NCBI GenBank assembly: GCA_034431315.1
Contig: DAOUDK010000119.1
Coordinates: forward strand, 28,873 to 92,872
Source: Anaerolineae bacterium
Lineage (GTDB): Bacteria > Chloroflexota > Anaerolineae > VGOG01
Length of the DNA stretch: 64,000 bases
Reading direction: 5' to 3'
A model generated the notes under the pieces. The model saw nothing but the letters and a program-made list of their open reading frames with translations, was not told the DNA's origin and ran no database searches. The position numbers and the translations under genes are program-made. Below, piece by piece: positions 3,938 to 33,767 of this stretch. Position 1 is the stretch's first letter, and the number at the start of each line of letters is the position of its first letter.

Positions 3938-6514
3938 CTACGGCCGCCGTTTATAAATGGTCACATTCCCCTGCTGGAAAGCCACGTCCATGAAGCGGTC
4001 GAATTTGGCCAGGGCCGCCGGGTTGTACTTGCCTCGCTCCAATGAGCCCACATAGACATAGGTTATACCATATTTTTCAAATAGCGTCAAGATACGCTGG
4101 ACGTCCGTGCTGCTGTAGATCGCGTTTATGTCAGGCTCGCGGCGGCCTGGCTCGTCGTAGTTTCCCCGCCACTGCAACTCGTGGCCGCCCCAACCCAACA
4201 CCGTGGGCAGTCCCGTGCGGCTGGAGACCCGCGCGTACTCGGTGAAGGAGCCGCCCGTGACCTCCAGGATGACCGGCGTGCCCGACACGTTTTCGTTGAG
4301 CCATTGGACGGCGGCATACTCGTCGGGGGAATGTTGGCGCACCCAGGCCAGGCCATCCAGGGTCGGCTGGGGAGCAAAGCCACCGGCCTTGTCGAACCCC
4401 GCGGCCAGGGGGTAGACCATGCCCAGGACGACGAGCACCGCCACGCCCACCAGGAACAGCGAGCGGCCCAATCCTTTCGCCTTTTCGATGACGTAATACA
4501 CCCCGTAGGCACTGGCCAGAGCCAGCAGCACCCAGGCCTGATAATAGAACTTGAACACGGTGTTCATGCGAGTGCCGAAGGTGTCCCGCAGGTAGACGAA
4601 CTCCACGCTGAGGGTGAGCACCAGGCCGGTGGCGATAATGAGCAACACGAAGAGGGTGCTCGGCTCGGCGATTCTCCCCTCACCTTTCCCCGCTCGCAAT
4701 CTCCGCCAGAGCAGGGCCACGACCCAGGCGATCAGCAGGGCCAGGAAGAGCCAGGTCCAGGGGTTGCCAAGCCGGATGGTGATGAGCTTTCTGATCAGCG
4801 AGGCCCAATCGGCCCCGCCGATCTGCTGCCGCACCATCTCGTTCGCCAGGATGCCTCGCAGAAAGGCCTGCCCCCCGGCGGTGAGCGTGACGAGGGCGAT
4901 GGATCCCAGGATGGCCAAAGGTGGCAAGAGTATGGTCCAAAACAGAGTCTTCAGGCCGCTACTCACCAGCTTCTTGCTCTCGACCTCGACTCTCAGCCGT
5001 TTCGTCGCCAACGCTACAAAGCCAATGACCACGAACACGAACGGCCCGAAAAAGATCAAGTACTGGTGCAACCTGGTAGGGTTGAACAGGTTGGGCAGGA
5101 TGCCCCCGGCCTGCGACTGGAAGCCAACGTAGAAGGGCAGGTAGAGGAGGCCGCCGAGGAGCGCCAGGCCCACGACTGTGTAAACGACGTCCCTCACCAA
5201 AGCCCAGTTGATTTTGCCATAGTACCCATAGCGGTGCAGTCCGTAGGTCACCGCCACCAGGAGCAGGTAGATGGGGAAGTCCCAGGTGTTGAGGAAGGCC
5301 AGTGCTCCCAGGCAGAGGGCGTGGAGGAGGGGATGTTGGAGGTTGGAAAATGGAGATTGGATATTGGAGATTAGAGCTTGGATATTGGATATTGGAAGTT
5401 GGAGGTTGGAGGTTGGAGTTTGGAGTTTGGAGTTTAGTATATTTAGCGCCAGGGCCAGGGCCAGCAGGACGAAGGGCAGGGCTAACACGTGGGGGTGCAT
5501 GTCGCCTAGCATGAAGCTGAAGAAGGGGAACTCGTCAATGACCTCCACGCTGTTGCCCAGCAGGTCCTTGTCGTGGATGACGCGGGAGGCGCGCCACCAC
5601 CACCATCCGCTGCCGAGATCGAACCACTTCCCAGTGACCTGCCCCTTGGTCACCAGCTCTTTTATGTCGAGCCAACTCCAAAACCCGGCCGAGCCGAGCC
5701 CTTTGGAGTACAGCACCTCGAAGATGCCTTCCAGGTTGCCGACGATGGCGACGAAAAGGGGACCCAGGAGGGGAACGAGGTAACGAGTTGACGAGTTAAT
5801 GAGTTTTCCTCGTTGCCTCGTTACCTCGTTGCCTCGTTGCCTCGTTACCTCGTTGCCTCGTTGCCTCATTGCCTCGTTGCCTCGTCCCTCAATGAGATTG
5901 TACACCAGCCCGTAGGCCCCCGTCACGGTCAGGGCAAACAGGAGCGTGATGCCCAGGTTGAAGGCGACGGCGGAAGCCACGCCCGACAGCTTGGTGAGCA
6001 GGGCCATCATCAGGTAGCCGAAGTAGTAGTAACTGATGCCGAAGCCGGAGAGCCAGGGGTCGTGGGGAGGGAAGGTGTCGCTGCGCAGGATGGCGTTGAG
6101 GAAGGCGAACTCCATGGGCTTCTCGGTAAGCATGATCTCAGGGCTGTAGGCTCGGAAGAGGGCGAAGAGGAGGAAGGCCAGGGCGAAGAGGGCTTCGTTG
6201 GCGATGACCAGGCGCCTGTTCCCACGCAAGAAGCTGGCTATCCCCGCCTCTCGCTTTCCCCTGGAGTAGAACCACCAGGAGCAGACGGCCACCACCAGGA
6301 TCGAGAAGACGATGCCGCCCCAACTATTGCGCAGGAAGCCGAAACTGGCCCCGATCCAAAGGACATAGCTGGTCAGGAGGATGCCCAGCGGCTTGGCGAA
6401 GGCGTAGCCCCTATCGGGCAGGTTCTTGAACAGCCGATAGGTAAGGGGCAAGGCCGCCAGGCCAAGTATCTCAATTATGAACCACCAAATCAAAACAGGA
6501 ATCAAAATTGCCAC
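3938..6514 (-). CDS. DUF2298-type large polytopic membrane protein (paralog of C-terminal half of 11388-15902 protein)
   Basis: 858 aa, >15 predicted TM helices, conserved C-terminal YVYVGSLERGKYNPAALAKFDRFM shared with 1504-aa paralog (YIYVGQLERTVYDAAGLAKFDEMV). Confidence 0.55.
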   Translation of the reverse strand: MAILIPVLIWWFIIEILGLAALPLTYRLFKNLPDRGYAFAKPLGILLTSYVLWIGASFGFLRNSWGGIVFSILVVAVCSWWFYSRGKREAGIASFLRGNRRLVIANEALFALAFLLFALFRAYSPEIMLTEKPMEFAFLNAILRSDTFPPHDPWLSGFGISYYYFGYLMMALLTKLSGVASAVAFNLGITLLFALTVTGAYGLVYNLIEGRGNEAMRQRGNEVTRQRGNEVTRQRGKLINSSTRYLVPLLGPLFVAIVGNLEGIFEVLYSKGLGSAGFWSWLDIKELVTKGQVTGKWFDLGSGWWWWRASRVIHDKDLLGNSVEVIDEFPFFSFMLGDMHPHVLALPFVLLALALALNILNSKLQTPTSNLQLPISNIQALISNIQSPFSNLQHPLLHALCLGALAFLNTWDFPIYLLLVAVTYGLHRYGYYGKINWALVRDVVYTVVGLALLGGLLYLPFYVGFQSQAGGILPNLFNPTRLHQYLIFFGPFVFVVIGFVALATKRLRVEVESKKLVSSGLKTLFWTILLPPLAILGSIALVTLTAGGQAFLRGILANEMVRQQIGGADWASLIRKLITIRLGNPWTWLFLALLIAWVVALLWRRLRAGKGEGRIAEPSTLFVLLIIATGLVLTLSVEFVYLRDTFGTRMNTVFKFYYQAWVLLALASAYGVYYVIEKAKGLGRSLFLVGVAVLVVLGMVYPLAAGFDKAGGFAPQPTLDGLAWVRQHSPDEYAAVQWLNENVSGTPVILEVTGGSFTEYARVSSRTGLPTVLGWGGHELQWRGNYDEPGRREPDINAIYSSTDVQRILTLFEKYGITYVYVGSLERGKYNPAALAKFDRFMDVAFQQGNVTIYKRRP
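5325..5437. repeat. Hexanucleotide (TTGGAG/TTGGAT)n microsatellite-like repeat inside CDS, in-frame (encodes SNLQ/SNIQ repeats on minus strand)
   Basis: Direct reading: ggaggttggaaaatggagattggatattggagattagagcttggatattggatattggaagttggaggttggaggttggagtttggagtttggagtttag; paralog at the same protein position has a short unrelated loop. Confidence 0.7.
5774..5888. repeat. Tandem 9/24-bp repeat (cctcgttgc / cctcgttac) with an inverted arm, in-frame inside DUF2298 CDS (encodes GNEVTRQR x4)
   Basis: Direct reading; left arm gaacgaggtaacgagttgacgagttaatgag is reverse complement of the tandem units; 40-aa insertion relative to the 1504-aa paralog. Confidence 0.7.
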
Positions 6515-6637: not shown

Positions 6638-7834
6638 TCAGTCTGTGTATTCTGGTTCGTTGATGAATTTCACTAATGGATGAAACGCTTGCATGATACG
6701 GACCACCTCATCAACCAAAGAGCGTCCTTGGTCTTTCCGAGACAGTTCGAGAGCTGAGTCTCTGTCAATTCGTCGTGTCACGGTCAGGTCGGGCAAGGGT
6801 ACTTGTTCCAAGAGCGTCTCGATGTAGCCAAATCCATGCGGCCCTAATTCGGGATCTTTGAGGTAGTCTACTTCCAGTCTAGCAATGCGATGGAAGTCAT
6901 AGAGCGATGCTTGTCTCTGTTTTCGTTCTCCCACTTGGATGAATAGTTCATCAAATAGTTCATCAGGCAGTAGCCTTGAAATAATCTCTCTAAACACTTG
7001 TTTGTCCTGGCGTATTTTCTTTCTCAGTCTAACAATCGCAGGTTTCAGTTCCACGTTGACAAAAACGTCAAGCGCGTAGGCTTTTAGCGATACAGTCTGG
7101 TGAGCCCACTGTCGGTATTTTCGCTTTCCAGGACCAAAGGCGACCCAGCACTCTTCACCTTTGGAACGAAGAGTGCCCACGTCATAGTCTTGGTAGAACG
7201 AATCGAAGTCCCACAGCCGGGCCTGGATCTTTTCGGCAAAAGACTGCACCGTGTCACGCACCCATCGCCTGGTGTCCTGGTCATCGTGAGTGACAAAAAA
7301 GTTGAACATCCCCTCCTCAAGACCAGTAAACTCTGCCAGTATCCGTTTAGGGCCTTTCTCTGGTGTTGCTATCTCCGTACCAGGGGGTGGTAGCTCTTCC
7401 CGATCAGGGGGTAGCTCTTCCCGACGTTCCATCCCCACCTGGATAGCCTTCACTAGCCGTGTCCAACCATCCTCTTCAAACAGGTTCACCCACTGGAATT
7501 TACGCAGCCTTTCTGGCACCTCACAATCTTCCAGCCGTACTGGAATCAGATAGATATCGTCCTCCAACTTCTCCAGCCAGATATTCAGCGCATCCTCGAT
7601 TTCCTTCTGAAGGAAACCTCTTTTCTTGACCGACTTTGCCGACAGACACGCCAGAAAGAAATCAGATCGCTGGATAGCTTTCTGGATACAAGACTGCCAT
7701 ATTTCTCCCGGTAGGATGTCCTTTTTGTCCATCCAGGGTTTGAACCTCGCATCGGATAACTTTTGGTGAAGATTCTTTACCTTTTCTTCATCCTCTCGCG
7801 CATAGCTGAGAAAAATCTGAGTCATTGCTTTCAC
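6638..7834 (-). CDS. TIR-domain protein (N-terminal ~135 aa TIR, C-terminal ~260 aa domain of unknown function)
   Basis: N-terminus MTQIFLSYAREDEEKVKNLHQKL...WMD...I..G..W...I..AI..S..FLACLS..S..K..F..EI fits bacterial TIR hallmarks; GTG start overlaps TGA stop of upstream gene (GTGA) with GGAGG 7 nt upstream; GC visibly lower than flanks. Confidence 0.65.
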   Translation of the reverse strand: MKAMTQIFLSYAREDEEKVKNLHQKLSDARFKPWMDKKDILPGEIWQSCIQKAIQRSDFFLACLSAKSVKKRGFLQKEIEDALNIWLEKLEDDIYLIPVRLEDCEVPERLRKFQWVNLFEEDGWTRLVKAIQVGMERREELPPDREELPPPGTEIATPEKGPKRILAEFTGLEEGMFNFFVTHDDQDTRRWVRDTVQSFAEKIQARLWDFDSFYQDYDVGTLRSKGEECWVAFGPGKRKYRQWAHQTVSLKAYALDVFVNVELKPAIVRLRKKIRQDKQVFREIISRLLPDELFDELFIQVGERKQRQASLYDFHRIARLEVDYLKDPELGPHGFGYIETLLEQVPLPDLTVTRRIDRDSALELSRKDQGRSLVDEVVRIMQAFHPLVKFINEPEYTD

Positions 7835-9327: not shown

Positions 9328-9795
9328 TCATTTCCACAGCTTGCCGAGCACCCAGCAAGCAAACCACAACACGCCAAAAAATAGAGCGGCATAAAAGCCA
9401 GCTATGGCGAGGTACCCAAGAATGTCGGCATCGATCAATATCCCAAGGGGGAGCAGCAGTACAAACAGAAGGCCACCTATCACGGCCAGTGTGCCAAACA
9501 ACCTGGCAAGTCGTTTGATCATTTCCTGGAACCGCTGCGTTGGTGGTTCGGCCTTTTGCTCTGTCGGCTGTATTTCTGGCTTTGGCGGTGGCTCGACAGG
9601 TTCGCCCTGTATCACCTCAACACCCACAGCCTCCCTGCGACTCAATATCTCATTGAGCCGTGCAAGGGCATCTATAGCCTCTCGATTGGTGGCATCCAGC
9701 GCCAGCACTTTCTCAAAGTATTCACGAGCGTACTCAGGATAGCCCGCTTCTAAGTCCTTGTGGCCAAGTTCAAGCAACCGCTCAATTTCGTCCAT
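9328..9795 (-). CDS. Hypothetical protein, N-terminal TPR-like helical motif plus C-terminal transmembrane helices
   Basis: 155 aa; N-term EIERLLELGHKDLEAGYPEYAREYFEKVLALDATNREAIDALARL; tandem paralog of 9814-10356. Confidence 0.4.
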   Translation of the reverse strand: MDEIERLLELGHKDLEAGYPEYAREYFEKVLALDATNREAIDALARLNEILSRREAVGVEVIQGEPVEPPPKPEIQPTEQKAEPPTQRFQEMIKRLARLFGTLAVIGGLLFVLLLPLGILIDADILGYLAIAGFYAALFFGVLWFACWVLGKLWK

Positions 9796-9813: not shown

Positions 9814-10356
9814 TCACTCTCCACTAGGCCGATGTAGGCCGCCGTCGTCTTGGGGTCGCTGTGGCCCAGCATCCGCTGCACCTGCAGGAGCGTCGCGCCG
9901 TTGTCGTGTTGCATAGAATAAGCCAAAACCAACACCAAGGCACAACACAAACCCGACTCCTGCAATGAGTAATCCTGTTAGGACATCGGATGTTAAAGGT
10001 TCGCCAGGAGTAAAGAAAAGCTCGAACATTATCCCTGTACCAGAACACAGTACCCCGATAAACAGGATTGCTCCTAGACCAAAAAAGATACCCCCGAGTA
10101 TCCGCAGCAGTAGTTTAGTCACGTTCACCTCACTTTCCCGCCCACGTTTATTTACATCTGGTTCGCCCCGTACCGGCCTAACAGGCACCGCTGCCCTGCG
10201 GCGCAATTCATCAATCCGTGCAAGGGCATCTATGGCCTCTCGATTGGTGGCATCCAGCGCCAGCACTTTCTCAAAGTCCTCACGGGCCTGCTCATACTGA
10301 CCTGTTTCAAGTCCCATGCAGCCATAATCAAGTAGTCGCTCAATGTCGTCTGTCAT
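9814..10356 (-). CDS. Hypothetical protein, paralog of 9328-9795 (TPR-like N-terminus + TM helices)
   Basis: 180 aa; N-term DIERLLDYGCMGLETGQYEQAREDFEKVLALDATNREAIDALARI nearly identical motif to neighbour. Confidence 0.4.
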   Translation of the reverse strand: MTDDIERLLDYGCMGLETGQYEQAREDFEKVLALDATNREAIDALARIDELRRRAAVPVRPVRGEPDVNKRGRESEVNVTKLLLRILGGIFFGLGAILFIGVLCSGTGIMFELFFTPGEPLTSDVLTGLLIAGVGFVLCLGVGFGLFYATRQRRDAPAGAADAGPQRPQDDGGLHRPSGE

Positions 10357-10374
10357 CTTGCACTCCTTTATCCT

Positions 10375-10470
10375 CTCACCCTGTAAATCCTCGTCCTCTC
10401 ATTCTCATAAACCACTTCCAACTCCCCTCGCCGCACCATCTCATCGAACTTGGCCAAGCCGGCGGGGTCG
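10375..10470. repeat. Direct repeat copy 1: degenerate duplicate of the 3' end (last ~30 codons) of the 1504-aa GT-C/DUF2298 gene
   Basis: 10397-10470 matches 11417-11490 with 3 mismatches in 74 bp; looser similarity extends ~20 bp further left. Confidence 0.75.
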
Positions 10471-10733
10471 AACCACTGATGCCGCTGAGAGAATACTGAA
10501 GGCACTGAGGGGAGCACCACGTTCAGTGGCCTCAGTGCTGTTCAGTGCGGTCAGTGATTCCAGCTTGGCTGGCGTCAGGCCAGTCCGCTGAAAGCACCAA
10601 AGCGGGACGCTGTTTGATCATCGTCAGATCGGTGAACCTGCGTCATTATATCATACGCCAGGTGAAATCGCAATATCCAGCCCAGTTGTTCTCAGGCCAG
10701 ACACCCATTTTCCCAAAATCCTCGAACTATGCT

Positions 10734-10739
10734 ATAATC
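10734..10739 (+). promoter_or_regulatory. -10 box TATAAT upstream of hicB, followed by AGGAGG RBS
   Basis: gctataatcttcttcAGGAGGtgaacgaaATG. Confidence 0.4.
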
Positions 10740-10759
10740 TTCTTCAGGAGGTGAACGAA

Positions 10760-11095
10760 ATGACCGACAAAACCCCGTCTTTCCGCTGTTACGCCTACCG
10801 CCGAGACCCAGACCACTATATCGCTTATTGTTTAGACCTCACTCTGATAGGAGAAGGAACAACGATGCGGGAGGCCATTGGCGACTTGGAAGAGGCAATG
10901 TTAGGCTACCTCGAATCCGTCTCCGATTTAGGCTGGGAGAAAGACCTCATTCCACGTCGAGCGCGTCCCGGCAGGTGGGTGGAGTTCTATAAGCTCTTCC
11001 TGATCCACATCCTCAGAGCCCTTTTCACCGGCGAACTCGGCAACTTCCAGACCTTCCAAGAGTATTTTGAGGATAGGGGCCTGGTCTATGCCTAA
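10760..11095 (+). CDS. hicB: HicB-family antitoxin (UPF0150-like)
   Basis: FRCYAYRRDPDHYIAYCLDLTLIGEGTTMREAIGDLEEAM matches HicB N-terminal fold pattern; stop overlaps ATG of hicA (ATGCCTAA). Confidence 0.55.
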   Translation: MTDKTPSFRCYAYRRDPDHYIAYCLDLTLIGEGTTMREAIGDLEEAMLGYLESVSDLGWEKDLIPRRARPGRWVEFYKLFLIHILRALFTGELGNFQTFQEYFEDRGLVYA

Positions 11096-11380
11096 AAAGT
11101 ACCCTCCTCTTACCCCCGCCGAAGTCATTGCTATTCTCCTCGCCAGGGGGTTCGTCCTCCATCGCACCAGTGGAAGCCATGCCCACTATCGAGGCACTAT
11201 ATCAAAGGCGTCAAATGCCTGGTGACCGTAGATGTGCACTACAAAGACTTCGACGTGGAACGCATCAAAGACATGATTCAACAAGCCAATCTGTCCCGCG
11301 AGGAATTCTACGGCAGCACCAAAAGGACCGCTAAAAAGATCAACCTCATCGCCCCAAAATATCCGATTCCTCTCAAGTAG
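11088..11380 (+). pseudogene. hicA: hicA toxin gene disrupted by an 11-bp duplication (cactat-CGAGGCACTAT-atc near 11190) causing frameshift and premature stop at 11223-11225
   Basis: Frame 1: MPKKYPPLTPAEVIAILLARGFVLHRTSGSHAHYRG..*; C-terminal HicA motif (HYIKGVKCLVTVDVHYKDFDVERIKDMIQQANLSREEF) continues in another frame to 11380. Confidence 0.6.
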
Positions 11381-11387
11381 TCCCCCC

Positions 11388-14300
11388 TTACCCCCTCACC
11401 TGATAGATTCTCACCATCTCATTCTCATAAACCACCTCCAACTCCCCTCGCCGCACCATCTCATCGAACTTGGCCAGGCCGGCGGCGTCGTAGACGGTGC
11501 GCTCTAACTGGCCCACGTAGATGTAGGAGACGTGCAGCTCGCCGATGAGCTGGAGGGCGCGGGAGATGTCGGGGGTGTTGAAGAAATCGCGCGCCTTTCC
11601 ATCGCGCTCCCCTACCTGCGAAGCGTAGCGCTGCTCGTTCTGGTGAGCGCCCAAGAAAGTAGGCAGCCCCGTGTAAGTGGCTACGCGCAAGCCTCCCTCG
11701 CGATAGTAAGGTATAGCAGCCTCGGCGACGACGGGGGTGCCCTTGACGTTGGCTATCAGCCACTGGAGGGCCTGGTAATCGTACTTCAGCTCGATGCGGT
11801 TGTTGTCAGGCCAGGTGTAAGAGCCGACGGTCATGAAGGCCATCCCATCCAGGGTGCCCACGGGCGGCCTATCGCCAGGGAAGCGATCGTTCACCCGCGC
11901 CGGGGTGAAGACGAGGGGATAGAGCAGGCTGGCGAAGGACAACAAGACCAGGCCAGCAGCCCAGACTCGCCGCTGGCCCGCTGACTGCCAACGCCTCATC
12001 CTGGCCCATAGACTGGGCACGGCCACCGCCGCAGCGATGCCCAGCATCACCCAGACCTGGATGTAGAACTTGAAGATGGTGTTCATGCGCCACCAGGTCT
12101 GGTCCCCGCCCAGGTGATCCTTCAGATAGACCACCTCGCAGCCCGCCGCCACCAGCAGCCCGGTGAAGACCAGCAGGGAGACGAAAAGCTCCTCAGGCGA
12201 GGCATCGTCGCGCAACAGGAGCAGCACAGCTCCAACGACCAGGGGCAATGCAAAGGCCAGCACCCAGAACTTCAGGACAGCCAACACCACCGCCAGCAGC
12301 AACACTCCTCCCAGGCTGTAAATGGACAGGGTATAGTTCGACGTCTGCCGATGCACGAGAGCCTGGTAGATCTCAGCCAGGTGGGGCAGCACCTCCCACC
12401 GTGCTAATAGCACCCGCACAAAGCGCAGCACCCCCAGCCTGGCCCGCTGTCGCACCAACTCCACCAACAAGAAGGTGATGACGATGAACAGGAAAAAGCC
12501 CCAGACGGTGAGGAAAGCCGCCAGGTCCGTCCGTCCTCTGGTGATGGCCAGGCCCAGGCCAACGTCGAGGGTCTGGTAATGGGCGAAGAAGGGCCGGTAG
12601 AGCAGCAGGCTCAGGCCGCCAACAGCGATGGTCGAAATCGCGGGCCAGGCGAGCTTCCATTTACCCTGAGCCAACCTCTCTCGAAGGACGAAGGCGATAG
12701 CGATGAGACCTAAATAGGTCGGGAGGTCCCAGGTGTTGGTCACCGCCAAGGCCCCCAGGCAGATGGGGAGCGAGAGATAGCGAACCGCAGTCGCCAGAGG
12801 TTCGCAGCCTGCCGCCTCTCGCCGCTTCCCGTCCAAGACGATCTCTAGCGCCAGGGCCAACACCAGGATGGTGAACGGTATCCCTATCATGTGGGGGTGC
12901 AAATCGGCGAAGAGGAAGCTGAAATAGGGGAACTCGCTGATGGTGCCGGGGATGACCCGCGTGCGGCCGAAGTAATCCAAAGGAGGCATGGCCTGGCCCC
13001 GGATGACCTTCAACAGCCCCGGCCAGGCCCGCACCAGCCCCTCCAGGCCGGGGATGCTGCTCCTGAAGCCAGAGCCGCCTATCCCACCCAGCCGGTCGGC
13101 CAGGTGCACCATCCCGTCCAGGTTGCCCAACACGGCCACGAAAACCGCCGCCAGCACTCCGGTGAGGACGGGCCTCCGCGCCCGCGCCAGATTGTACCCC
13201 ATACAGAACACGTTCCCCACCGTCAGGGCAAACAGCATCGGGATGGCCAGGTTGAAGGCCAGCGAGGGCATGATGCCCGTCAGCTTGATCACCAGGCCCA
13301 CGATGAACTGGCCGTAGTAGTAATAGTTGATATACCCACCGGCGAAGTAGGGATCGTAGGGCGGAAAGTGGGGGCTCTTGAGGATGGCGTTCAGGAAGGC
13401 GAACTCCATAGGCTTCTCGCCGCCCAGCCAGGGCTGCCACAGATCAGGATTGAACATCCGAATGACGACGAAAAACAGGAAGGCCGCAGCGAAGAGAGCT
13501 TCGTTGAGCAAGATCAAACGCTTGTTATCGCGCCAGAAAGCAACCATCGTCTCTCTGTGGCGTCGGAAGAAATAGAAGGAGAGGACGGCCAGAAGGGCCA
13601 GGGCCAGTATGATAGTGGGCAGACTGTTTCGCAGCAGGCGGAGGCTGGCCGAGATCCACACCAGGTAGGCCACGATTATCAGGCCCAGGCTCTTGGCCAG
13701 GATGTAGCCCCGGTCCGAGAGATGACGGAAGACGACGAAGGTCACTGGCCAGGCAGCCAGTCCCACCAGCACCACCGCCAGCCACCAGAAGATGACGGCG
13801 AACAGATGATAGCGATTGGCCAGGCCGTTCCAGCGGAAGTCGTCAATGACGGGAAGCTCATCCACTGGCCCATCGAGGAGCAGCGTCTTGCCCTCTTCGG
13901 ATTCGCTGGGGGGCGACGCAGGTCGAGAAGTAGCGCCCCAGAAGCGAGCCAAGAGCGTCGGCGCGCCCACGTAGCCGCGGATGGCCCCCTCCCAGCTATC
14001 GCCCAGCAGGGAGTCCCATTCCGCCCCGCTCAGCTCCCGCACCTTCTGGAAGATGATGGGCTTGGGGTGATCGTAGACCGTGAAGCTCTCGTCGCTGGCA
14101 TCGTCATTGAAGACGAAGGGGCCCAGGCGAGGGTAGGTAGTGAACTCAGCCACCTTCTCGAATCCCAGTTCTCCGGCGAAGAGAAGCTGATAGTACCTGG
14201 TGCTCATGGGATAGCGCTCCGGCAGGTTGGGGACGGCCCCGTACAGGCGGTTGGTGGACAGGATGACGTAGTCCGCCTCGCTCAGGCGAGAGCGTATCTG

Positions 14301-15902
14301 GTGGTACTTCTGCTCGTTATCATCCTCATACATGGGCAGCTCGACCAGCCGATACCTGTGCGCCCCGATGTTCGCCCCCGGCTCAGGCAGCCCCAGAGGC
14401 AAGTCATCGTCCCAGTGCTCAGAGGCCAGCACCGAGCCATCGGGCACGTTGTCATAGATCCAGCGCGAGGCGATGATCCAGGAGTGTTCCGTGCCGTAGA
14501 CGCCGCCAACGAAGGCCAGCGCCCAGAAAACCGTCGCCAGCAACACAATGGCTGTTATCAGATATTGGATATTGGATATTGGCCATTGGGTTTTGGGTAT
14601 TCGTCGAGAATATCTAGTATCCAATACCCGATATCCAGCGAAAAGCATCCCTACTCCCATAACCGTGAACAGCGGCACCACCGGCACCATATACCGCACG
14701 AACTTGGCCAGGAAGAGCCCGGTTATGCCGAAGTAGGGAACGATCCAGGAGAGCAGGATCAGCTCGCCCGGCCTGGCTCGCCGCAGGAGGGTGCGCAGCA
14801 GCACCCAGCCCAAACCCAGAAAAGCGACGATGCCCAGCGGCCAACCCATCCCCCAGCGTATTTGCTGCTCGATGTGATAGAGGTAAGGAACCGTGCCTCG
14901 GTACTGGCGGGTGAAGGGCATGTCCGCCCGGCCGCTGGCCATGGCTCCCTGCTCCACAATCACCGCCTGCTTAAAGCTGTCCCAATCTAGAAAGACAAAG
15001 GGTGAGGTGAGGGCGAAAACCAGGAAGGCAACGACGAAGACTAGCAGCAACTGCCGCACAACCTGGATCCGGTCGGTTGGGCCGTCCTGTCTCGACCGCC
15101 ACGCCACGATCATAACGGCCACCACCGGCGCGGCCAGGATCGGCAACGCGCTGAACTTGGAAGCGATGGCCAGACCAGCGCCCAGGCCGGTTAGGGCTGC
15201 TGCGCCTCGCGTGCGGCGTTCCACCATCAGTATGGCGCCATACAGCGCCAGCAAGGTGAAAGTAGTGGAGATGGGATCAACGGCGAAGAAGTGGGCGAGC
15301 TGGATCTGGGTGACGGTGAAAGCGGAGAGAGCCGCCGCCAGCAACCCCGCCGCCTGCCCGTAGATGCGGCGGCCAATCAGGTAGACCAGGTAGACGGTGA
15401 AGGTGTCAGCCAGGGCCATGAGGAAGCGGCCCACGTAGGCGAAGCCCGGCGAGCCGTTGGCCGTGGCCAGGGACTGCACGATCTCAGGAGAAGCGCCGAC
15501 GCGCTCAGCCAGCGGCGCCAGGTTGTGCACCGCGTTGGCAGTGATGGTCAACAAGTAGAGCGGGAAGTGGCCATAGGTGTAGCTTCGGCGATGCTGGCCG
15601 TTGAGGTCCCAGAGGGGGTTGAAGGTAGACTTCTTGGGGTCCAAGGCCGTTGACCAATCCTTTGGCAAATGCATCGTCGGGGCGTAGAAGGCCACCGTCG
15701 AGCGCTCATCCGGGTGGGTCAGCTTGCCGTCATCCCAGGTGATGTTGTAGCAGCGCAAGGCAGCGGCGGCCAACAGCACGGCCAGCAGCGCCAGCTGAGT
15801 CCAATTTCTCTTTAATCTAATCATTGCCTTCTGCATAGTCCTGATTCCTTGTGAAGATGGGGTTATTTTATCACTATTGGGGCTGGATGACAAATGGAAC
15901 AA
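11388..15902 (-). CDS. Giant fused polytopic membrane protein: N-terminal GT-C (family 39/ArnT-like) glycosyltransferase-like half + C-terminal DUF2298 half
   Basis: 1504 aa; N-half homologous to 1877-3664 product, C-half to 3938-6514 product; AGGAGG-like RBS context; dozens of TM helices. Confidence 0.6.
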   Translation of the reverse strand: MFHLSSSPNSDKITPSSQGIRTMQKAMIRLKRNWTQLALLAVLLAAAALRCYNITWDDGKLTHPDERSTVAFYAPTMHLPKDWSTALDPKKSTFNPLWDLNGQHRRSYTYGHFPLYLLTITANAVHNLAPLAERVGASPEIVQSLATANGSPGFAYVGRFLMALADTFTVYLVYLIGRRIYGQAAGLLAAALSAFTVTQIQLAHFFAVDPISTTFTLLALYGAILMVERRTRGAAALTGLGAGLAIASKFSALPILAAPVVAVMIVAWRSRQDGPTDRIQVVRQLLLVFVVAFLVFALTSPFVFLDWDSFKQAVIVEQGAMASGRADMPFTRQYRGTVPYLYHIEQQIRWGMGWPLGIVAFLGLGWVLLRTLLRRARPGELILLSWIVPYFGITGLFLAKFVRYMVPVVPLFTVMGVGMLFAGYRVLDTRYSRRIPKTQWPISNIQYLITAIVLLATVFWALAFVGGVYGTEHSWIIASRWIYDNVPDGSVLASEHWDDDLPLGLPEPGANIGAHRYRLVELPMYEDDNEQKYHQIRSRLSEADYVILSTNRLYGAVPNLPERYPMSTRYYQLLFAGELGFEKVAEFTTYPRLGPFVFNDDASDESFTVYDHPKPIIFQKVRELSGAEWDSLLGDSWEGAIRGYVGAPTLLARFWGATSRPASPPSESEEGKTLLLDGPVDELPVIDDFRWNGLANRYHLFAVIFWWLAVVLVGLAAWPVTFVVFRHLSDRGYILAKSLGLIIVAYLVWISASLRLLRNSLPTIILALALLAVLSFYFFRRHRETMVAFWRDNKRLILLNEALFAAAFLFFVVIRMFNPDLWQPWLGGEKPMEFAFLNAILKSPHFPPYDPYFAGGYINYYYYGQFIVGLVIKLTGIMPSLAFNLAIPMLFALTVGNVFCMGYNLARARRPVLTGVLAAVFVAVLGNLDGMVHLADRLGGIGGSGFRSSIPGLEGLVRAWPGLLKVIRGQAMPPLDYFGRTRVIPGTISEFPYFSFLFADLHPHMIGIPFTILVLALALEIVLDGKRREAAGCEPLATAVRYLSLPICLGALAVTNTWDLPTYLGLIAIAFVLRERLAQGKWKLAWPAISTIAVGGLSLLLYRPFFAHYQTLDVGLGLAITRGRTDLAAFLTVWGFFLFIVITFLLVELVRQRARLGVLRFVRVLLARWEVLPHLAEIYQALVHRQTSNYTLSIYSLGGVLLLAVVLAVLKFWVLAFALPLVVGAVLLLLRDDASPEELFVSLLVFTGLLVAAGCEVVYLKDHLGGDQTWWRMNTIFKFYIQVWVMLGIAAAVAVPSLWARMRRWQSAGQRRVWAAGLVLLSFASLLYPLVFTPARVNDRFPGDRPPVGTLDGMAFMTVGSYTWPDNNRIELKYDYQALQWLIANVKGTPVVAEAAIPYYREGGLRVATYTGLPTFLGAHQNEQRYASQVGERDGKARDFFNTPDISRALQLIGELHVSYIYVGQLERTVYDAAGLAKFDEMVRRGELEVVYENEMVRIYQVRG
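11395..11490. repeat. Direct repeat copy 2 (authentic 3' end of 1504-aa gene) matching 10375-10470
   Basis: See copy 1; spacing of cores exactly 1020 bp, enclosing hicB-hicA. Confidence 0.75.
14560..14600. repeat. (GATATTGG)n / TTGGAT hexamer-type repeat in-frame within 1504-aa CDS (encodes WPISNIQYL)
   Basis: cagatattggatattggatattggccattgggttttgggtattcg; same motif family as 5325-5437 and 43168-43228. Confidence 0.6.
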
Positions 15903-15926
15903 CGGAGACGCCGAATGGAATTCGAC

Positions 15927-15992
15927 GTCTGAAACTGAGAAGCGCCCTCAGGCGCTAGACCGAGGCCCTGAGGGGCCTTCTCAGTTTCAGAC
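15927..15992 (-). promoter_or_regulatory. Compound hairpin: 16-bp outer stem (GTCTGAAACTGAGAAG / CTTCTCAGTTTCAGAC) enclosing two small palindromes (GCGCC-TCAG-GCGC, GGCCC-TGAG-GGGCC); terminator/attenuator between yqeB-like gene and 1504-aa gene
   Basis: Direct reading of perfect inverted repeats. Confidence 0.5.
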
Positions 15993-16907
15993 GGGGATTT
16001 CTAATCCTCGGCCTCTCAACAAATACAGAACAGCCTCCAACACTCCCCCACCGATGGCCCGCGCCTTGTCGGAGATGGTGAAGCAATGCTCGCGCACGCC
16101 CCGCGGGTCTACGTCGCCCACTTTCAGGCCGGCCTTCACCGGTAGCCCGTCGGCCAGCAGCCCCCTGAGCACGCCTGATATTTTTGCCACGACGGGCTGG
16201 CCAGCGACGGAGGCCACTACCTGGCCTGCTTCCACTGGATCGCCGATGCGCCGCTGGCCCGTGAAAGCGCCCTCGCAGGGGGCGCGGAGCACTCGCTCAG
16301 CGGTGAAGCCTGCCGTCGGGCCGGGCACGCCGGTGTGCGGCTCCGCGCTGCCCGACAGGATGACCCGCCCCAGATGGTGCCCGCGATTGGTCTCGATCAC
16401 CGCGTGGACGTCCACGCCAGCGGTGAAGCCCGGTCCCAGGCCGATGACGATGGGAGCGTCGGTGATGGCGGTGGCGCCAGTGTTGCGCTTGGCCATGATG
16501 GCATCAACGACCGCGGTGGGGCGCAGCCGAGTAATCACCTCCCCGCGCGGATCTAGAACCACGGGAACCTGACCTCCAGCCAGGGCGGCGCGTATCTCTT
16601 GATCGCCTTCGGCCAGCCGGGCCACCAATCCCTCCACCTCTACCTGCCCTTCGTAGACGGCAGAGGCCACGGCCACCGCCCGGCGGATGACCGTAGGCTG
16701 GGCCAGTTCCGTGACCACCACCCGCATCCCAGCCCGATGCAAGCGATGCACCACGCCAGTGGCCAGGTCACCCCCACCTTTGATCACCACCAGGATGTCT
16801 TCAAGCATTGGTTTGTCTCCTGTGAGCTCCCTCAGCAAGTGCTCGGAGCCCCGTCCGCGGGGCGGATCTTGCGGCTCGACTTCGCCAGCGACGATATCCT
16901 CAAGCAT
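15987..16907 (-). CDS. YqeB/EF2563-family selenium-dependent molybdenum hydroxylase system protein
   Basis: Rossmann-like motif ILVVIKGGGDLATGVVHRLHRAGMRVVVTELAQP...RRAV..A.AVYEG typical of TIGR03309 family; adjacent to xdhC; true start may be internal Met. Confidence 0.5.
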   Translation of the reverse strand: MLEDIVAGEVEPQDPPRGRGSEHLLRELTGDKPMLEDILVVIKGGGDLATGVVHRLHRAGMRVVVTELAQPTVIRRAVAVASAVYEGQVEVEGLVARLAEGDQEIRAALAGGQVPVVLDPRGEVITRLRPTAVVDAIMAKRNTGATAITDAPIVIGLGPGFTAGVDVHAVIETNRGHHLGRVILSGSAEPHTGVPGPTAGFTAERVLRAPCEGAFTGQRRIGDPVEAGQVVASVAGQPVVAKISGVLRGLLADGLPVKAGLKVGDVDPRGVREHCFTISDKARAIGGGVLEAVLYLLRGRGLEIPV

Positions 16908-16950
16908 CTCTTTCTCTCCTATCTACCACTAAGACACCAAGGCACCAAGA

Positions 16951-18270
16951 TTACGACATATTTACTTCGTGTCTTTGTGTCTTAGTGGTTATCAACCTCG
17001 GCTCTTGCAACCTCAAAGCCAAGAAAAAGGCCACGGCATAAAAGGCCAGGGCCAACGAGAAAAGCACGGTAAAGCCTGTTATATCAACGATCAGGCCTCC
17101 CACCGACGAGGCCAACAGAGCTATCCCCATGGTGGTGTTGGTGAAGCCGATGTAGAGGGGCCGACTATCGGCCGGGGCAATCTCCAGCAGGAAATTCATG
17201 TTGCCGATCATGGCTCCCGATTTGTAGCCGCCAGATAGGACGAAAACCAGGGCGAAAAGGCTCGGAGCTAACTCCCTCAGCCCAGGCCACATATCGGCCA
17301 GCGGCCCGATGGATAGAGCCGTTAGAGGTATCAACAGCCCCAGCGCGCTGGACAAGATGAGGAGCAATTTGTTGCCCCGCCGGTCGCTGATGCGGCCCCA
17401 CAGCAAGTTGGAGGCGAAACTGGCCAGGGTGGCCCCAGTCAGGTAGACCCCCACCATGCCCACCGACACGGAGAGAGCCCGTTTGGCGTAAACGATGTAG
17501 AAAGGAGTGGCTATCTCCGCCGCCATCAGCAGCAGGCGCATGGTCAAGAAGCGGCGGTAGTTTGCGTCTCGACGCGGCAGATCCAAAGCCCGCCTGAATT
17601 GCCTGCCCAGGGACACTCTCTCCTCATTAACCGGCTCAACAGGTTCCACCACCAGGGTAAAGCTGCCCAGACCCACGCAGAGGGCAAAGAAGGAGAGCAA
17701 GAAGAGAATGGCATAGTTATCGGGGAAAGTCAGGCCGCGCCCTTCGTCGAGGATGTACTTAACCAACAGACTACCGCCCAGGGCCAAGAATCCCCCAGAA
17801 AAGCGACGCCAGCCGAAGAATGCCCCGCGTCGGGTGGCTGGGATGGCTTTAGCCACGATGTCTATGAAGCTGATGCCAGCCAGGCCCGCCGTCAGGCTAT
17901 AAGCAGCCAGCAGGGTGAAAAAGACGACGAGAAGCAAAGCGGGGTCCTCAATGAGGAAGACGGCCAGGGTCATCAGTCCCCAGATTGCCACCCTTGCCCC
18001 AGCCACGCGAGCGTAGAAGGGCAGTTTTCGCTGGCGCCTCTGTAGATAGCTGGAGATCACGAGCTGGGGTAGAAACCAGCCACCACCCTGAATGGGCGTG
18101 ATCAGGCCAATGAGGAAGTTGGAGGTCGTCAGTTGGCTGACGAACCAGCTCAGCACCAAAGAGGGGTCCAGCAGCGCGCTGTAGAAATTGGAGAAAGCGC
18201 CATTGAGCACCCCAAAGATGAAATTGCGCTTCAGGTGGCGTTGGGCCGTAGCATTGATGGTATGGGCCAA
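16951..18270 (-). CDS. MFS transporter
   Basis: 439 aa, 12 predicted TM helices, MFS-type loop motifs. Confidence 0.6.
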   Translation of the reverse strand: MAHTINATAQRHLKRNFIFGVLNGAFSNFYSALLDPSLVLSWFVSQLTTSNFLIGLITPIQGGGWFLPQLVISSYLQRRQRKLPFYARVAGARVAIWGLMTLAVFLIEDPALLLVVFFTLLAAYSLTAGLAGISFIDIVAKAIPATRRGAFFGWRRFSGGFLALGGSLLVKYILDEGRGLTFPDNYAILFLLSFFALCVGLGSFTLVVEPVEPVNEERVSLGRQFRRALDLPRRDANYRRFLTMRLLLMAAEIATPFYIVYAKRALSVSVGMVGVYLTGATLASFASNLLWGRISDRRGNKLLLILSSALGLLIPLTALSIGPLADMWPGLRELAPSLFALVFVLSGGYKSGAMIGNMNFLLEIAPADSRPLYIGFTNTTMGIALLASSVGGLIVDITGFTVLFSLALAFYAVAFFLALRLQEPRLITTKTQRHEVNMS

Positions 18271-18286
18271 GGGAAGCTATTCCTTT

Positions 18287-19195
18287 TCAGTTGCCAGGCA
18301 CTTTCACCGAGGATTTCACAGCAAAAGCGCTTTTCGAATTGCCTTTGGCGTTCGGACAGACAGCCTTTTCGGAAGTGCCTGGCAACTTGGATGTGCCCCT
18401 CCCGGCGCTCAGCGACCGGCCCTCACGCCCCTGGCGCAACATGAGCATCTCGGCCATGATGCTGAGAGCGATCTCCGCAGGCGAGTCCGCCCCCAGGTCC
18501 AGGCCCACTGGAGCATACACCCGCACCAACTGCTCCTCACCTACCCCCGCCTCCCGCAGGACCTTGAAGACGAGGCTCACCTTGCGGCGGCTGCCCAGCA
18601 GCCCGATGTAGGCCGCTGGGGACTCGATGACCGCCCGCAACGCAGCCGCGTCACTTTCGTGGCTGCGGGAAGCGATGACTATCCAGGTACTTGGGGTTAT
18701 ATCGAGCGCGCTCAAACCGGCTTCGAAATCCTCGACCAGTATCTCTTCGGCCTGGGGGAAGCGATCGCGGTTGGCGTATTCGGCGCGGTCGTCGAACACC
18801 GAAGTGCGGAATCCCAGCAACGGTGCCAGTTCGGCCAGGGGGATGGCCACGTGGCCTGCCCCGATGAGCAGCAGGGTGAGCTGCGGGGAGATCACGTCAA
18901 CGAAGACGTCCAGGTCTCCTCCACAAACGCCCAGGTCTTGCTCGTGCTTATCGGCGCGCAAACCGTAGTGAACCAGGCGCGACCTCCCTTCGTCCAAAGC
19001 TTCCTGGGCGGCCTCAATGATGGCAGCCTCCAGCGCTCCTCCTCCGACGGTGCCTATGCTGGTGCCGTCGGGGCGAATCAGCATTTTGGTTCCCACCTGG
19101 CGGGGCGTTGAGCCACGGGTCTGGACAATGACAGCCACAGCCACAGATTCCCGCCGACGCACAGCCTCAGTGATAGCCTCGTAGATCGTGTTCAT
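18287..19195 (-). CDS. xdhC: XdhC/CoxI family molybdenum hydroxylase accessory protein
   Basis: 302 aa; N-terminal XdhC_CoxI domain and C-terminal Rossmann domain (LLLIGAGHVAIPLAELA). Confidence 0.7.
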   Translation of the reverse strand: MNTIYEAITEAVRRRESVAVAVIVQTRGSTPRQVGTKMLIRPDGTSIGTVGGGALEAAIIEAAQEALDEGRSRLVHYGLRADKHEQDLGVCGGDLDVFVDVISPQLTLLLIGAGHVAIPLAELAPLLGFRTSVFDDRAEYANRDRFPQAEEILVEDFEAGLSALDITPSTWIVIASRSHESDAAALRAVIESPAAYIGLLGSRRKVSLVFKVLREAGVGEEQLVRVYAPVGLDLGADSPAEIALSIMAEMLMLRQGREGRSLSAGRGTSKLPGTSEKAVCPNAKGNSKSAFAVKSSVKVPGN

Positions 19196-19258
19196 TCACC
19201 TACCTCCTTCTGAGCAGGTCTTTATTATACCATCTTCCAGTGTTCGGAGCAATAAAAC

Positions 19259-19312
19259 GTGATTCGTGTTGCGTGGTCCGTCAAATCCAACGCACCACGC
19301 AACACGAATCAC
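19259..19312 (-). terminator. Perfect 19-bp inverted repeat hairpin (GTGATTCGTGTTGCGTGGT ... ACCACGCAACACGAATCAC) overlapping stop of activase gene
   Basis: Direct reading; 16-nt loop. Confidence 0.5.
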
Positions 19313-20085
19313 TTCGCTTTCTCTCTAGCCAGCAGTGCCGCCCCTAACGCACCAACAAGTTGGGGTTCCGGTGGCAGGAGGATGGCCAAGCCTATCTGCT
19401 TCTCCAGGGCTCTCACCACGCCGATGTTCACGGCTACTCCGCCGCTCATGACCACCGCCTCCTCCAGGCCCACCTGCCCTGCCAGCCCTGCCACCCGGTT
19501 GGCGATGGCCACGTGGATGCCAGCCACGATGTCGGCCTTGGGCGCTCCCCTGCTCATCTGACCTATGACCTCCGACTCGGCGAAGACGGTGCAGGTGCTG
19601 GAGATGCTTACCGGGTGCCGGGACTGCTGGGAAAGAGGCCCCAGCTCCTCGACTTCCAGCTCCAGAGCCTCGGCCATCACCTCCAGGAAGCGGCCCGTGC
19701 CAGCGGCGCACTTGTCGTTCATGGCGAAGTCGGTGACGTATCCACGGGGATGCACCCTGATCACCTTGCTGTCCTGCCCGCCGATGTCTATCACGGTGCG
19801 CGTGGTGGGGAAAAGATGTGTCGCGCCCCGGGCGTGACACGTTATCTCCGAGACCTCCTCGTTGGCCGCGTCGTACGTCACCCGCCCGTAGCCGGTGACC
19901 ACTGTGTAACCCACATCATCGGCAGCGACGCCCTCCCGCTCCAGCAACCCTTCCACCAACCGCGCCGCCACCTGGCAGCTATCGTGTCTGGATCTGGCCA
20001 GATCGCTGGCGACCACGGCACCAGCCCCATCCAATACCACCGCTTTGACCGTCAGCGCGCCGATGTCTATCCCCACAAAGTACAT
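19309..20085 (-). CDS. BadF/BadG/BcrA/BcrD-type ATPase (CoA-substrate-specific enzyme activase, HgdC-like)
   Basis: MYFVGIDIGALTVKAVV... acetate/sugar-kinase fold ATPase with Cys residues for [4Fe-4S] bridging; start chosen at ATG 20083-20085 preceded by CCAGGAGG. Confidence 0.65.
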   Translation of the reverse strand: MYFVGIDIGALTVKAVVLDGAGAVVASDLARSRHDSCQVAARLVEGLLEREGVAADDVGYTVVTGYGRVTYDAANEEVSEITCHARGATHLFPTTRTVIDIGGQDSKVIRVHPRGYVTDFAMNDKCAAGTGRFLEVMAEALELEVEELGPLSQQSRHPVSISSTCTVFAESEVIGQMSRGAPKADIVAGIHVAIANRVAGLAGQVGLEEAVVMSGGVAVNIGVVRALEKQIGLAILLPPEPQLVGALGAALLAREKAK

Positions 20086-20178
20086 GGCATCCTCCTGGTA
20101 AGCGAGACCCCAGGTTTTTCCCCGTCTGAGCAAGCAGATCGTTTCATAGCACGTCAAAGCGGGGGGGTGAGGGTAACT

Positions 20179-20263
20179 GTCAACGGATTCCGGGAACGAA
20201 TTGAACGGATTGGAGTTCCGCACGTGACTTTTTCCGTTCAATCCGTTCAAAGAATCCGTTGAC
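20179..20263. repeat. Large imperfect palindrome built from AACGGATT / AATCCGTT motifs (GTCAACGGATTC ... GAATCCGTTGAC); related to AACGGATT variant of the MITE family
   Basis: Direct reading. Confidence 0.55.
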
Positions 20264-20425
20264 AGCAATCCATGCTTTCTATCCCCCTACTTTGGGGTGC
20301 TATGGATCATTTTGGGGGGACTTCTGGGATACGAAAAAATGTCTCTCATTAACCAAAAAACCCTGGTTTCTGATTCCTACCTCCGGTAGCGTATTATACC
20401 AGGAATCCCCCACAGTTCAAGGAGA

Positions 20426-20454
20426 TTGACAATTTCTCCCCCGAGTAGTATGAT
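20426..20454 (+). promoter_or_regulatory. Sigma70-like promoter TTGACA-17-TATGAT for response regulator gene
   Basis: ggagaTTGACAatttctcccccgagtagTATGATaagg. Confidence 0.5.
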
Positions 20455-20486
20455 AAGGGCACCGACTTCAAAGAGAGGACCGCAAC

Positions 20487-21218
20487 ATGGTTTCGACTGA
20501 AAACAAGCTTATCCTGATAGTGGACGATGAGCCACGGATGATCAAGTTCATTCGCTTGAACCTGGATCTGGAGGGATATCGAGTTAGCGAGGCGTCCAAC
20601 GGCCTGGAGGCCCTGGATAAAGTTCGCCAGGAGCTGCCCGATCTCGTCTTGCTGGACGTGATGATGCCTGAGATGGACGGGTTCGAGACCCTGGAGCGCG
20701 TCCGCGAGATCTCGAACGTGCCGGTCATCATGCTCACCGTCAAGGCCGAGGAGGAGGACAAAGTGCGGGGCCTGGAGCTGGGGGCCGATGACTACGTCAC
20801 CAAGCCCTTCAGTCCCAGGGAGCTCTCCAGCCGCATCAAAGCCGTGCTGCGCCGGACGGCGATGCCGTCGCCGGTCGAGAAGACTATCCTGAAAATTGAC
20901 GACGATGGCTTCGGCTTATCCATTGACTTCAATCGGCGGGAGGTCTTAGTGCGAGGCGAGAGGATCAAGCTGCGCCCGACCGAGTACCGCTTGCTCTATC
21001 ACCTGGTCAACAACGCCGGCTGGGTGATGACCCACGAGATGCTGCTTTCCAAAGTCTGGGGCTACGCCTATCGGGACGACACCCACCTTTTGCGCGTCTA
21101 CATCACCTACCTGCGCCAGAAGATCGAGCCGGATCCTTCCAATCCCAGGTACATTTTCACCGAGCGGGGCATAGGCTACCGCTTCGTGGATTTCAAGCAA
21201 AAAACCCAGGGTGGCTGA
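20487..21218 (+). CDS. OmpR-family winged-helix response regulator (orphan; no adjacent histidine kinase)
   Basis: 243 aa; receiver domain (LIVDDEP...D...MP.MDG) + trans_reg_C (LT..E..LL..L). Confidence 0.8.
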
Positions 21219-33656: not shown

Positions 33657-33730
33657 TCGGGGCGGCCGGATTTGAACCGGCGGCCACTTGAACCCCATTC
33701 AAGTGCGCTACCTGGCTGCGCTACGCCCCG
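33657..33730 (-). tRNA. tRNA-Pro (anticodon GGG), no encoded CCA
   Basis: Cloverleaf folded by hand: acceptor CGGGGCG/CGCCCCG, D-stem GCGC, anticodon stem CTTGA/TCAAG loop ATGGGGT, T-stem GCCGG/CCGGC loop TTCAAAT. Confidence 0.8.
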
Positions 33731-33738
33731 TCAGAGTA

Positions 33739-33767
33739 ATTATAACAGATAGCTATGAATTTGGCAA
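33739..33767 (-). promoter_or_regulatory. Sigma70-like promoter TTGCCA-17-TATAAT for tRNA-Pro
   Basis: Minus strand: TTGCCAaattcatagctatctgtTATAATtactctgaCGGGG. Confidence 0.55.

Follow-up and report, generated by a model that had tools for sequence, protein, structure and literature searches.

How a toxin–antitoxin (TA) pair can come to lie at the 3′ end of a coding gene with that gene still intact, and whether such a pair is a lone element or part of something larger, is the question raised by a locus in the 64,000-nt stretch of Anaerolineae (Chloroflexota) DNA analysed here (the window). The insert in question, at 10471–11416, carries a hicB-like gene and a broken hicA, and sits between the gene for a 1504-aa PMT_2/DUF2298 membrane glycosyltransferase (the DUF2298 gene) and its co-oriented TPR neighbour. 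We assign a probability of about 0.7 to the reading that, as a whole, explains the locus best: DNA bearing a surrogate end for the DUF2298 gene was inserted by recombination within a repeated 74-bp segment, in a manner that would be reversible, and hicA decayed afterwards. In an uncultured phylum-level lineage, a 1-kb TA cassette without a recombinase gene would have entered a coding gene harmlessly by carrying a copy of the gene's own tail. Coordinates are positions in the window unless a contig is named, and L-numbers (L001 and so on) denote the related contigs compared; features are collected in Table 1.

A duplicated gene end flanks the insert

The direct repeat, here called b, occupies 10397–10470 and 11417–11490, with 71 of 74 bases identical (mismatches at 10416, 10457 and 10466) and a spacing of exactly 1020 bp, in agreement with a preliminary description of the locus. 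The additional similarity of about 20 bp proposed there holds on one side only: leftward of b, 10350–10396 and 11370–11416 are still 62% identical, whereas past the right edge identity drops to 25%, meaning that the similarity ends at once. Realignment also confirmed that the right copy, in frame with the gene body on the minus strand, is the real 3′ end of the 1504-aa gene. The left copy, previously regarded as a non-coding relic, is indeed joined to no gene body, but it retains the reading frame and a stop codon (10368–10370), and it holds the native end of the gene rather than a copy of the present one, as the following comparisons indicate.

Empty sites, whose presence in related genomes had been left to be checked, came to light in contigs that carry close orthologues of the 1504-aa gene. 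The TPR gene directly follows the DUF2298 gene in L015 (gene body 91% identical) and L017 (86%), where the TPR orthologue begins 1–8 nt past the DUF2298 stop. On this evidence, the TPR/transmembrane gene appears to be the ancestral direct downstream neighbour of the DUF2298 gene. In a further contig, L016 (3589–8273), the orthologous DUF2298 gene is split into three open reading frames (ORFs), with its C-terminus frameshifted just before the conserved GLAKFD motif, and the site is otherwise empty; sequencing errors probably account for these breaks in the L016 assembly.

The native gene ends of the empty-site orthologues read ENERTRIYRVRG followed by the stop, and in the window it is the left relic that carries this end. 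Its stop-proximal stretch, a_orig (TTATCCTCTCACCCTGTAAATCCTCGTCC), agrees fully with the native ends of L015 and L016 and deviates from those of L021 and L017 by one and two bases, respectively. The end now used by the 1504-aa gene (11388–11416) reads ENEMVRIYQVRG followed by the stop and belongs to a different segment, a_elem, which shares 66% identity with a_orig over the stop-proximal 29 nt. Sequence of the a_elem type lies directly after hicA in other contigs (91% identical in L013, 83% in L054, and also matched in L046; degenerate in L001, L022 and L053), and in L013 it does so on a contig without a DUF2298 gene body. Since a_orig agrees with the native ends of the orthologues and a_elem with what follows hicA in other contexts, the cassette brought a surrogate end with it: the last nine codons of the 1504-aa gene arrived with the cassette, and the native end was displaced. 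From the origins of these stop-proximal halves, the left relic is, historically, the displaced original.

This arrangement resembles that of e14 and phage 21 in the icd gene of Escherichia coli. There, the element provides a slightly different 3′ end that keeps the gene functional, the native fragment is left as the icdC pseudogene, and the duplicated ends recombine upon excision (PMC13626634, citing Hill et al. 1989). As in that case, the insert lies in the 3′ end of a coding gene, a surrogate end is supplied, the native C-terminal fragment is displaced to the far end, and relatives carry the empty site (L015 and L017); the duplicated target end flanks the insert, and the element-borne copy is in frame. 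A difference is that e14 is a prophage of 15 kb that brings its own integrase and has a defined att core, whereas the insert here measures about 1 kb, carries a TA pair only, lacks a recombinase gene and belongs to a multi-cassette array.

The insert belongs to a family of palindrome-delimited cassette arrays

Immediately next to the left copy of b lies a 95-nt imperfect palindrome, here called pal, which is unique in the window. Folded as DNA, its two strands reach −28.2 and −27.9 kcal/mol (z −3.9 and −4.6). A search with a 21-mer of pal recovered seven loci from five Anaerolineae/Chloroflexota metagenome-assembled genomes (MAGs) and 23 metagenome contigs; five of the 12 genome matches (Devosia, a cyanobacterial MAG, Colidextribacter, Pseudoflavonifractor and Oscillospiraceae) had unrelated flanks and were discarded. 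Altogether, 31 distinct copies with 72–98% identity were obtained from Anaerolineae MAGs and metagenomes. Their consensus hairpin has 31 pairs with a single compensatory pair, the copies being too alike to test selection on structure, and variation in the stem is mostly A/G on the 5′ arm, with G–T pairs kept on one strand only. An Rfam scan of 10300–11500 on both strands returned a chance snoRNA match alone (E 3.2), so pal corresponds to no known RNA family. Viral contigs contained neither pal nor a relative of the HicB-like protein, leaving a phage vehicle unsupported. Short-read contigs often end inside pal or b (position 1 of L013 and the ends of L017, L022 and L043), and pal arrays are probably under-assembled and under-counted in metagenomes.

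In the relatives, cassettes that encode hicBA, parE–phd, tumE with its partner and others lie between pal copies and DUF2298 3′-end fragments in one orientation; the ParE and TumE identities were confirmed by Pfam. L013 and L022 carry the order b′–pal (bracketed as a unit), hicB, hicA, a_elem, b and pal, followed by another cassette, and L026, L050 and L052 carry parE and a phd-like gene between two pal copies. In L028, which is flanked like the window by TPR and DUF2298 genes, the order is relic, pal, b′, pal, truncated parE with a phd-like gene, pal and gene end; its tandem b′–pal units follow each other at a distance of 154 bp without any intervening sequence. In L021, L032 and L044, the DUF2298 gene end carries the tumE pair together with truncated parE and phd. 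Contigs L054–L058, syntenic with window positions 11387–21196, contain at least five pal copies and no TumE; besides an HNH gene and small ORFs, their arrays contain a hicB paralogue that stands alone as an orphan and a further hicB paired with an intact hicA. Unrelated flanks can surround one and the same hicBA–a_elem unit, which lies beside parE in L013 and beside a CHAT/STAND gene in L001.

The window insert thus represents one of several states of a polymorphic array of TA cassettes that is anchored at the end of the DUF2298 gene. The preliminary description had proposed a small element inserted into a gene 3′ end; the insertion with duplication of that end stands, whereas the lone att-flanked element does not, since the insert is a member of an array and, in addition, includes a mazF-like remnant. 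The latter, a 136-bp spacer between pal and the hicB promoter, is what is left of a mazF-like gene that is longer in L054: positions 10580–10636 are 91% identical to L054 8506–8562, inside a 57-aa ORF with a weak PemK_toxin match (E 3.2e-4, below the gathering score). A promoter-like TG-TATAAT site within the remnant (10673–10645) faces outward, to pal, the relic and the TPR genes.

L001 shows a further state (3076–3233), in which hicBA lies beside the CHAT/STAND NTPase gene without pal and is followed by a decayed DUF2298 3′-end remnant that takes in about 100 nt of the gene body at 71% identity. As this remnant stands in a context without pal, the association of hicBA with the DUF2298 gene end predates the sampled pal arrays. 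The DUF2298 gene end acts as a common docking point for different TA cassettes, one that is probably reversible, and pal offers a searchable marker for such arrays.

Is pal a recombination site or a selfish repeat?

The arrays invite comparison with site-specific cassette systems. Under such a reading, integron-like or similar to dif modules, pal alone or together with a fragment of b would be the site, the recombinase would be encoded elsewhere, and the DUF2298 end would be the primary attachment site. Palindromes of about 95 nt, conserved within the lineage and in one orientation, do separate cassettes of 0.6–1 kb, mostly TA pairs with their own promoters, and cassette content differs between related genomes. 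The retention of stem pairing on one strand only is as expected for a site that folds as a single strand. Sedentary chromosomal integrons likewise hold TA cassettes with their own promoters and a content that varies between relatives (PMC13108822, PMC4889954), and the arrays described here resemble those with TA cassettes (PMC13108822); integrons also occur in Chloroflexi (PMC4889954). The likeness extends to the superintegron of Vibrio cholerae and its repeats (VCR), in which small cassettes of variable content lie in one orientation between lineage-homogeneous imperfect palindromes.

Against this, inspection of the 31 pal copies with their flanks revealed no RYYYAAC or GTTRRRY ends in either orientation, and pal accordingly lacks the R″/R′ consensus of integron sites. 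No integrase, and no adjacent intI or attI, was found in the scans near the window locus or the pal arrays. Solitary pal copies occur in ordinary intergenic DNA (L025, L017 and L029), the edges of the b fragments vary, and several junctions look illegitimate. Unlike in integrons, moreover, part of a host coding sequence is built into the repeat unit, a gene 3′ end anchors the array, and the cassettes seen so far are almost all TA or small defence-like genes. We consider this site-specific reading unlikely.

Small modules that lack their own recombinase, often encode TA pairs and are bounded by short recombination sites are also known as pdif modules on Acinetobacter plasmids, where host enzymes shuffle them from one replicon to another (PMC6449649, PMC13141974). 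These share the general design of the present cassettes; however, their sites are 28-bp XerC/XerD targets in alternating orientation on plasmids, whereas the pal hairpins measure 95 nt and lie on a chromosome in direct orientation; nothing like the 11-6-11 layout of a dif site was recognised. In a more specific form of the proposal, pal and the DUF2298 3′-end fragment together would make up the recombination site of an undescribed cassette platform of Chloroflexota (Anaerolineae) with its integrase in trans, which would stockpile TA and small defence cassettes at the tail of a glycosyltransferase gene that looks essential and stay harmless by means of surrogate ends. This remains a tentative and rather doubtful idea; if it were true, the system would be a functional analogue of integrons with a different site architecture, and the finding of a dedicated recombinase would define a new form of cassette capture outside the integron paradigm.

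Alternatively, pal could be a selfish repeat akin to repetitive extragenic palindromic (REP) sequences or miniature inverted-repeat transposable elements (MITEs), having spread alone, with the arrays and the duplicated gene end as by-products of unequal crossing-over and no mobility of the cassettes. Its termini do show inverted similarity (AACCACTGA…TCAGTGATT), some copies are solitary and intergenic (L025 and L029), contigs break at pal (L013, L017, L022 and L043), and the b′–pal units of L028 stand in tandem with an empty interval. However, neither the window copy nor its relatives show an evident or consistent target-site duplication, and all pal copies within any one multi-copy locus share their orientation. 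The recurrence of the hicBA–a_elem unit in unrelated flanks (L013 and L001) also speaks against this view, and a_elem and a_orig have diverged too far for the resident gene end simply to have been duplicated in place. We regard the selfish-repeat explanation as highly improbable.

The toxin gene carries a 2-bp lesion and its partner is HicB-like at most

The break in hicA had been ascribed to an 11-bp duplication, which we rejected. Alignment with the intact hicA genes of L013, L001 and L054 shows that CGAGGCACTAT encodes conserved residues and is native sequence; the bases preceding the two CACTAT copies differ (ATGCC versus CGAGG), no true tandem duplication exists, and only a 2-bp repair fits the 96-aa length of the intact homologues. 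These are present in six cassette sets (L001–L006, L009–L012, L013, L022, L053 and L054–L058), and all of them read GSHAHYRG(T/I)IKGVKC. The lesion is instead one extra dinucleotide TA at 11198–11201, where the DNA alignment sets ACTATATC in the window against ACTATC in L013. The premature stop at 11223, with the conserved C-terminus continuing out of frame, was correctly recognised in the preliminary description, as was the decay of the toxin with the antitoxin ORF left intact.

Removal of the 11 bp in silico, as had been proposed, does restore a HicA-like ORF (39.5 bits against PF07927), but removal of 2 bp does so too: the resulting 96-aa product scores 37.1 bits (cut-off 27) and covers profile positions 3–58 of 58, so the Pfam profile alone is unable to choose between the repairs. 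As encoded, the 45-aa ORF stays under the cut-off with 25.6 bits, and the window hicA offers no intact HicA frame of about 60–100 aa. The repaired protein differs from HicA of L013 by three residues, which suggests that inactivation was recent. Judged from these alignments, the window hicA is most probably a pseudogene of a HicA family member, its toxin predicted to be inactive beside an intact antitoxin ORF.

Could the frameshift be an artefact of assembly or consensus calling, or a minority variant, with the toxin intact in the living population? The exact locus is known from one assembly only (the exact HicB-like sequence on two records reflects one scaffold held by ENA and NCBI), the repaired HicA sequence does not occur in the protein collection, and the remainder of hicA is undamaged and close to that of L013. 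On the other hand, no break interrupts the window's other long ORFs, a neighbouring one of 4.5 kb among them, so indel errors are rare in the scaffold and a random one in hicA is unlikely. A 2-bp insertion outside a homopolymer is an unusual assembly error. Loss of the toxin with retention of the antitoxin also recurs in related arrays: hicA is deleted beside hicB in L041 (1691–2613), a second hicB stands without hicA in L009–L012, hicA is degenerate in L007 (8323–8612), and parE is truncated beside an intact phd-like gene in seven contigs (L028 5389–5741 and six similar ones). An artefact is decidedly improbable on these grounds. Orphan antitoxins are the usual end state in pal arrays, which provide natural snapshots of TA decay, in which toxins are lost via frameshift, deletion or truncation and antitoxins persist.

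The 111-aa product of the gene upstream of hicA is more difficult to name. The preliminary description had placed a HicB/UPF0150-like gene under a TATAAT promoter; an extended −10 promoter is present, and both TATGCTATAAT and GGAGGTGA are invariant across the cassette alignments, but family models do not supply the name, as the protein matches no Pfam or NCBIfam family at E up to 10, the HicB/UPF0150-type model included. No C-terminal ribbon–helix–helix (RHH) or helix–turn–helix (HTH) DNA-binding domain was detected, residues 63–111 being modelled as low-confidence helix and coil. Only eight representatives of 90%-identity clusters were found as homologues, and their profile weakly matches the HicB structures 6g1c and 6g1n in the PDB (E 0.011–0.019, residues 29–62). 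An AlphaFold model built from seven sequences is of low confidence (pLDDT, predicted local distance difference test, 48), with strands at 10–16, 19–24 and 27–32 and a helix at 36–57; the top eight PDB matches of this pLDDT-48 model in Foldseek are all HicB-type antitoxin chains (best probability 0.99, E 0.03, 52 columns). Its position beside hicA and this weak fold evidence hint that the protein may be HicB-like.

Gene order sets the pair apart as well. In canonical hicAB, the toxin gene lies upstream of the antitoxin gene (PMC11594946), whereas the antitoxin-like gene comes first in the window and in all relatives, and here it lacks a recognisable HicB Pfam or DNA-binding domain. Like the hicAB of Haemophilus influenzae, first described as a strain-variable insertion in a pilus gene cluster and taken to support horizontal mobility (PMC11594946), the present HicA-family pair is either present or absent at a fixed chromosomal site.

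A proposed course of insertion and the points against it

In the course that we propose, DNA with the order b′–pal–…–hicB–hicA–a_elem would have recombined with the chromosome inside the 74-bp b, most simply through homologous recombination of a circular intermediate by a single crossover, yielding TPR–a_orig–b′–pal–cassette–a_elem–b–gene body. The end supplied by the cassette would have kept the gene intact, with the native end left as a relic, and if the two b copies recombined with each other, the array would be lost and the native gene restored. A later insertion of the dinucleotide TA by slippage would then have knocked out hicA, leaving hicB and its promoter as an orphan antitoxin. We infer this pathway and its reversibility, along with any function that pal or the orphan HicB may have, from the arrangement of sequences.

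Several comparisons agree with this course. The two b copies are 96% identical and the flanking a segments 62–66%, which fits a crossover inside b between diverged ends. In addition, b is better conserved than the gene body in several orthologues (94% versus 86% in L017, 94% versus 85% in L016, and 93–96% versus 92% in L028) and would make a good landing pad, with the exception of L015 and L022, which carry a different b allele. Recombination between b copies, by restoring the native gene, would also explain why filled and empty sites are patchy and interleaved.

No candidate enzyme accompanies the locus. The insert encodes only the hicB-like gene, the hicA pseudogene and the mazF-like remnant, and no recombinase or integrase was found in the Pfam list for 8 kb on either side, in 17 other window ORFs or in 20 ORFs beside pal arrays. 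The sole recombinase-like match in these scans was a weak DDE_5 transposase fragment at 33688–34056 (E 3.9e-4), 23 kb away. For the attL/attR-like pattern put forward earlier, this means that duplicated ends do flank the insert, but that, for a cassette without an integrase, the att label can be used as an analogy only.

Other points weigh against the proposed course. No recombinase, circular form or junction read was observed, and the proposed course does not account for the first origin of the unit of gene-end fragment and pal. When ordered by sequence identity, filled and empty sites are interleaved, so that either gain or loss may lie behind the state of any one lineage, and the truncation of parE at a 4-nt microhomology (CGCA), together with the variable left edges of the b fragments, points to illegitimate events too. 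The HicB identity is weak, and the hicA frameshift comes from a single assembly, its scaffold deposited in both ENA and NCBI. Our literature search for palindrome-delimited TA cassettes in Anaerolineae found nothing specific; the locus joins two known themes, insertion with a surrogate 3′ end and TA cassette arrays, in a form not found in the literature searched.

Table 1. Features at and around the insertion site, with positions in the 64,000-nt window.
Feature	Coordinates	Strand	Basis or remarks
TPR/transmembrane gene, 180 aa	9814..10356	-	translation; weak TPR Pfam matches; orthologues in empty sites
Native 3′ end of the DUF2298 gene, displaced; 34 codons and stop, ending in FDPAGLAKFDEMVRRGELEVVYENERTRIYRVRG	10368..10470	-	a_orig (10368-10396) and left copy of b (10397-10470)
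pal, 95-nt imperfect palindrome with three CACTGA and four TCAGTG motifs; conserved cassette delimiter	10471..10565	+	folding; copies in relatives
Remnant of another cassette, mazF/pemK-like gene fragment (ORF 10575-10673, reading MIKQRPALVLSADW)	10566..10700	-	identity to L054
hicB promoter, TTCCCA-17 nt-TATAAT, with TG extended -10 and followed by the GGAGGTGA ribosome-binding site	10710..10738	+	promoter scan
hicB-like antitoxin gene, 111 aa, intact	10760..11095	+	upstream of hicA, 8-nt overlap
hicA toxin gene, predicted pseudogene	11088..11380	+	frameshift; premature stop at 11223-11225; rest out of frame, no other damage
a_elem, cassette-borne surrogate gene end	11381..11416	-	last 9 codons, stop (11388-11390) and 7-nt gap to the hicA stop
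Right copy of b, joined to the gene body; proposed crossover segment	11417..11490	-	repeat alignment
PMT_2 and DUF2298 (Chlor_Arch_YYY) fusion gene, 1504 aa; insertion target	11388..15902	-	translation; domain matches

Neighbouring genes

Downstream of the insertion, two tandem paralogous TPR/transmembrane genes (9328–9795 and 9814–10356) share a 143-nt repeat (79% identity, 558 bp apart), and the empty-site contigs L015 and L017 carry at least one such gene. A split PMT_2 gene and a separate 858-aa DUF2298 gene (1880–3664 and 3938–6514) lie 5 kb from the fused 1504-aa gene; the split and fused genes are paralogous versions of one two-domain system in the same neighbourhood. Between a GH88 hydrolase gene and a DUF2298 gene, 6638–7834 encodes a protein of 398 aa that starts with a TIR_2 domain (E 5e-28). 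The array of L054–L057 is flanked by TIR/pentapeptide proteins as well, and these TIR neighbours may hint at a defence-gene neighbourhood.

Farther away, at 45643–46478, a 140-aa ORF without a family match abuts a gene for a 139-aa HNH endonuclease, the last base of the ORF (46062) being the first base of the HNH gene. One cassette of the L054 array likewise pairs an HNH gene with a small partner upstream, and the window pair may be a related two-gene module outside any pal array. The window further encodes a 1089-aa Type ISP restriction–modification enzyme (37518–40784), and in L009 an intact DDE_5 transposase gene adjoins the hicB copies.

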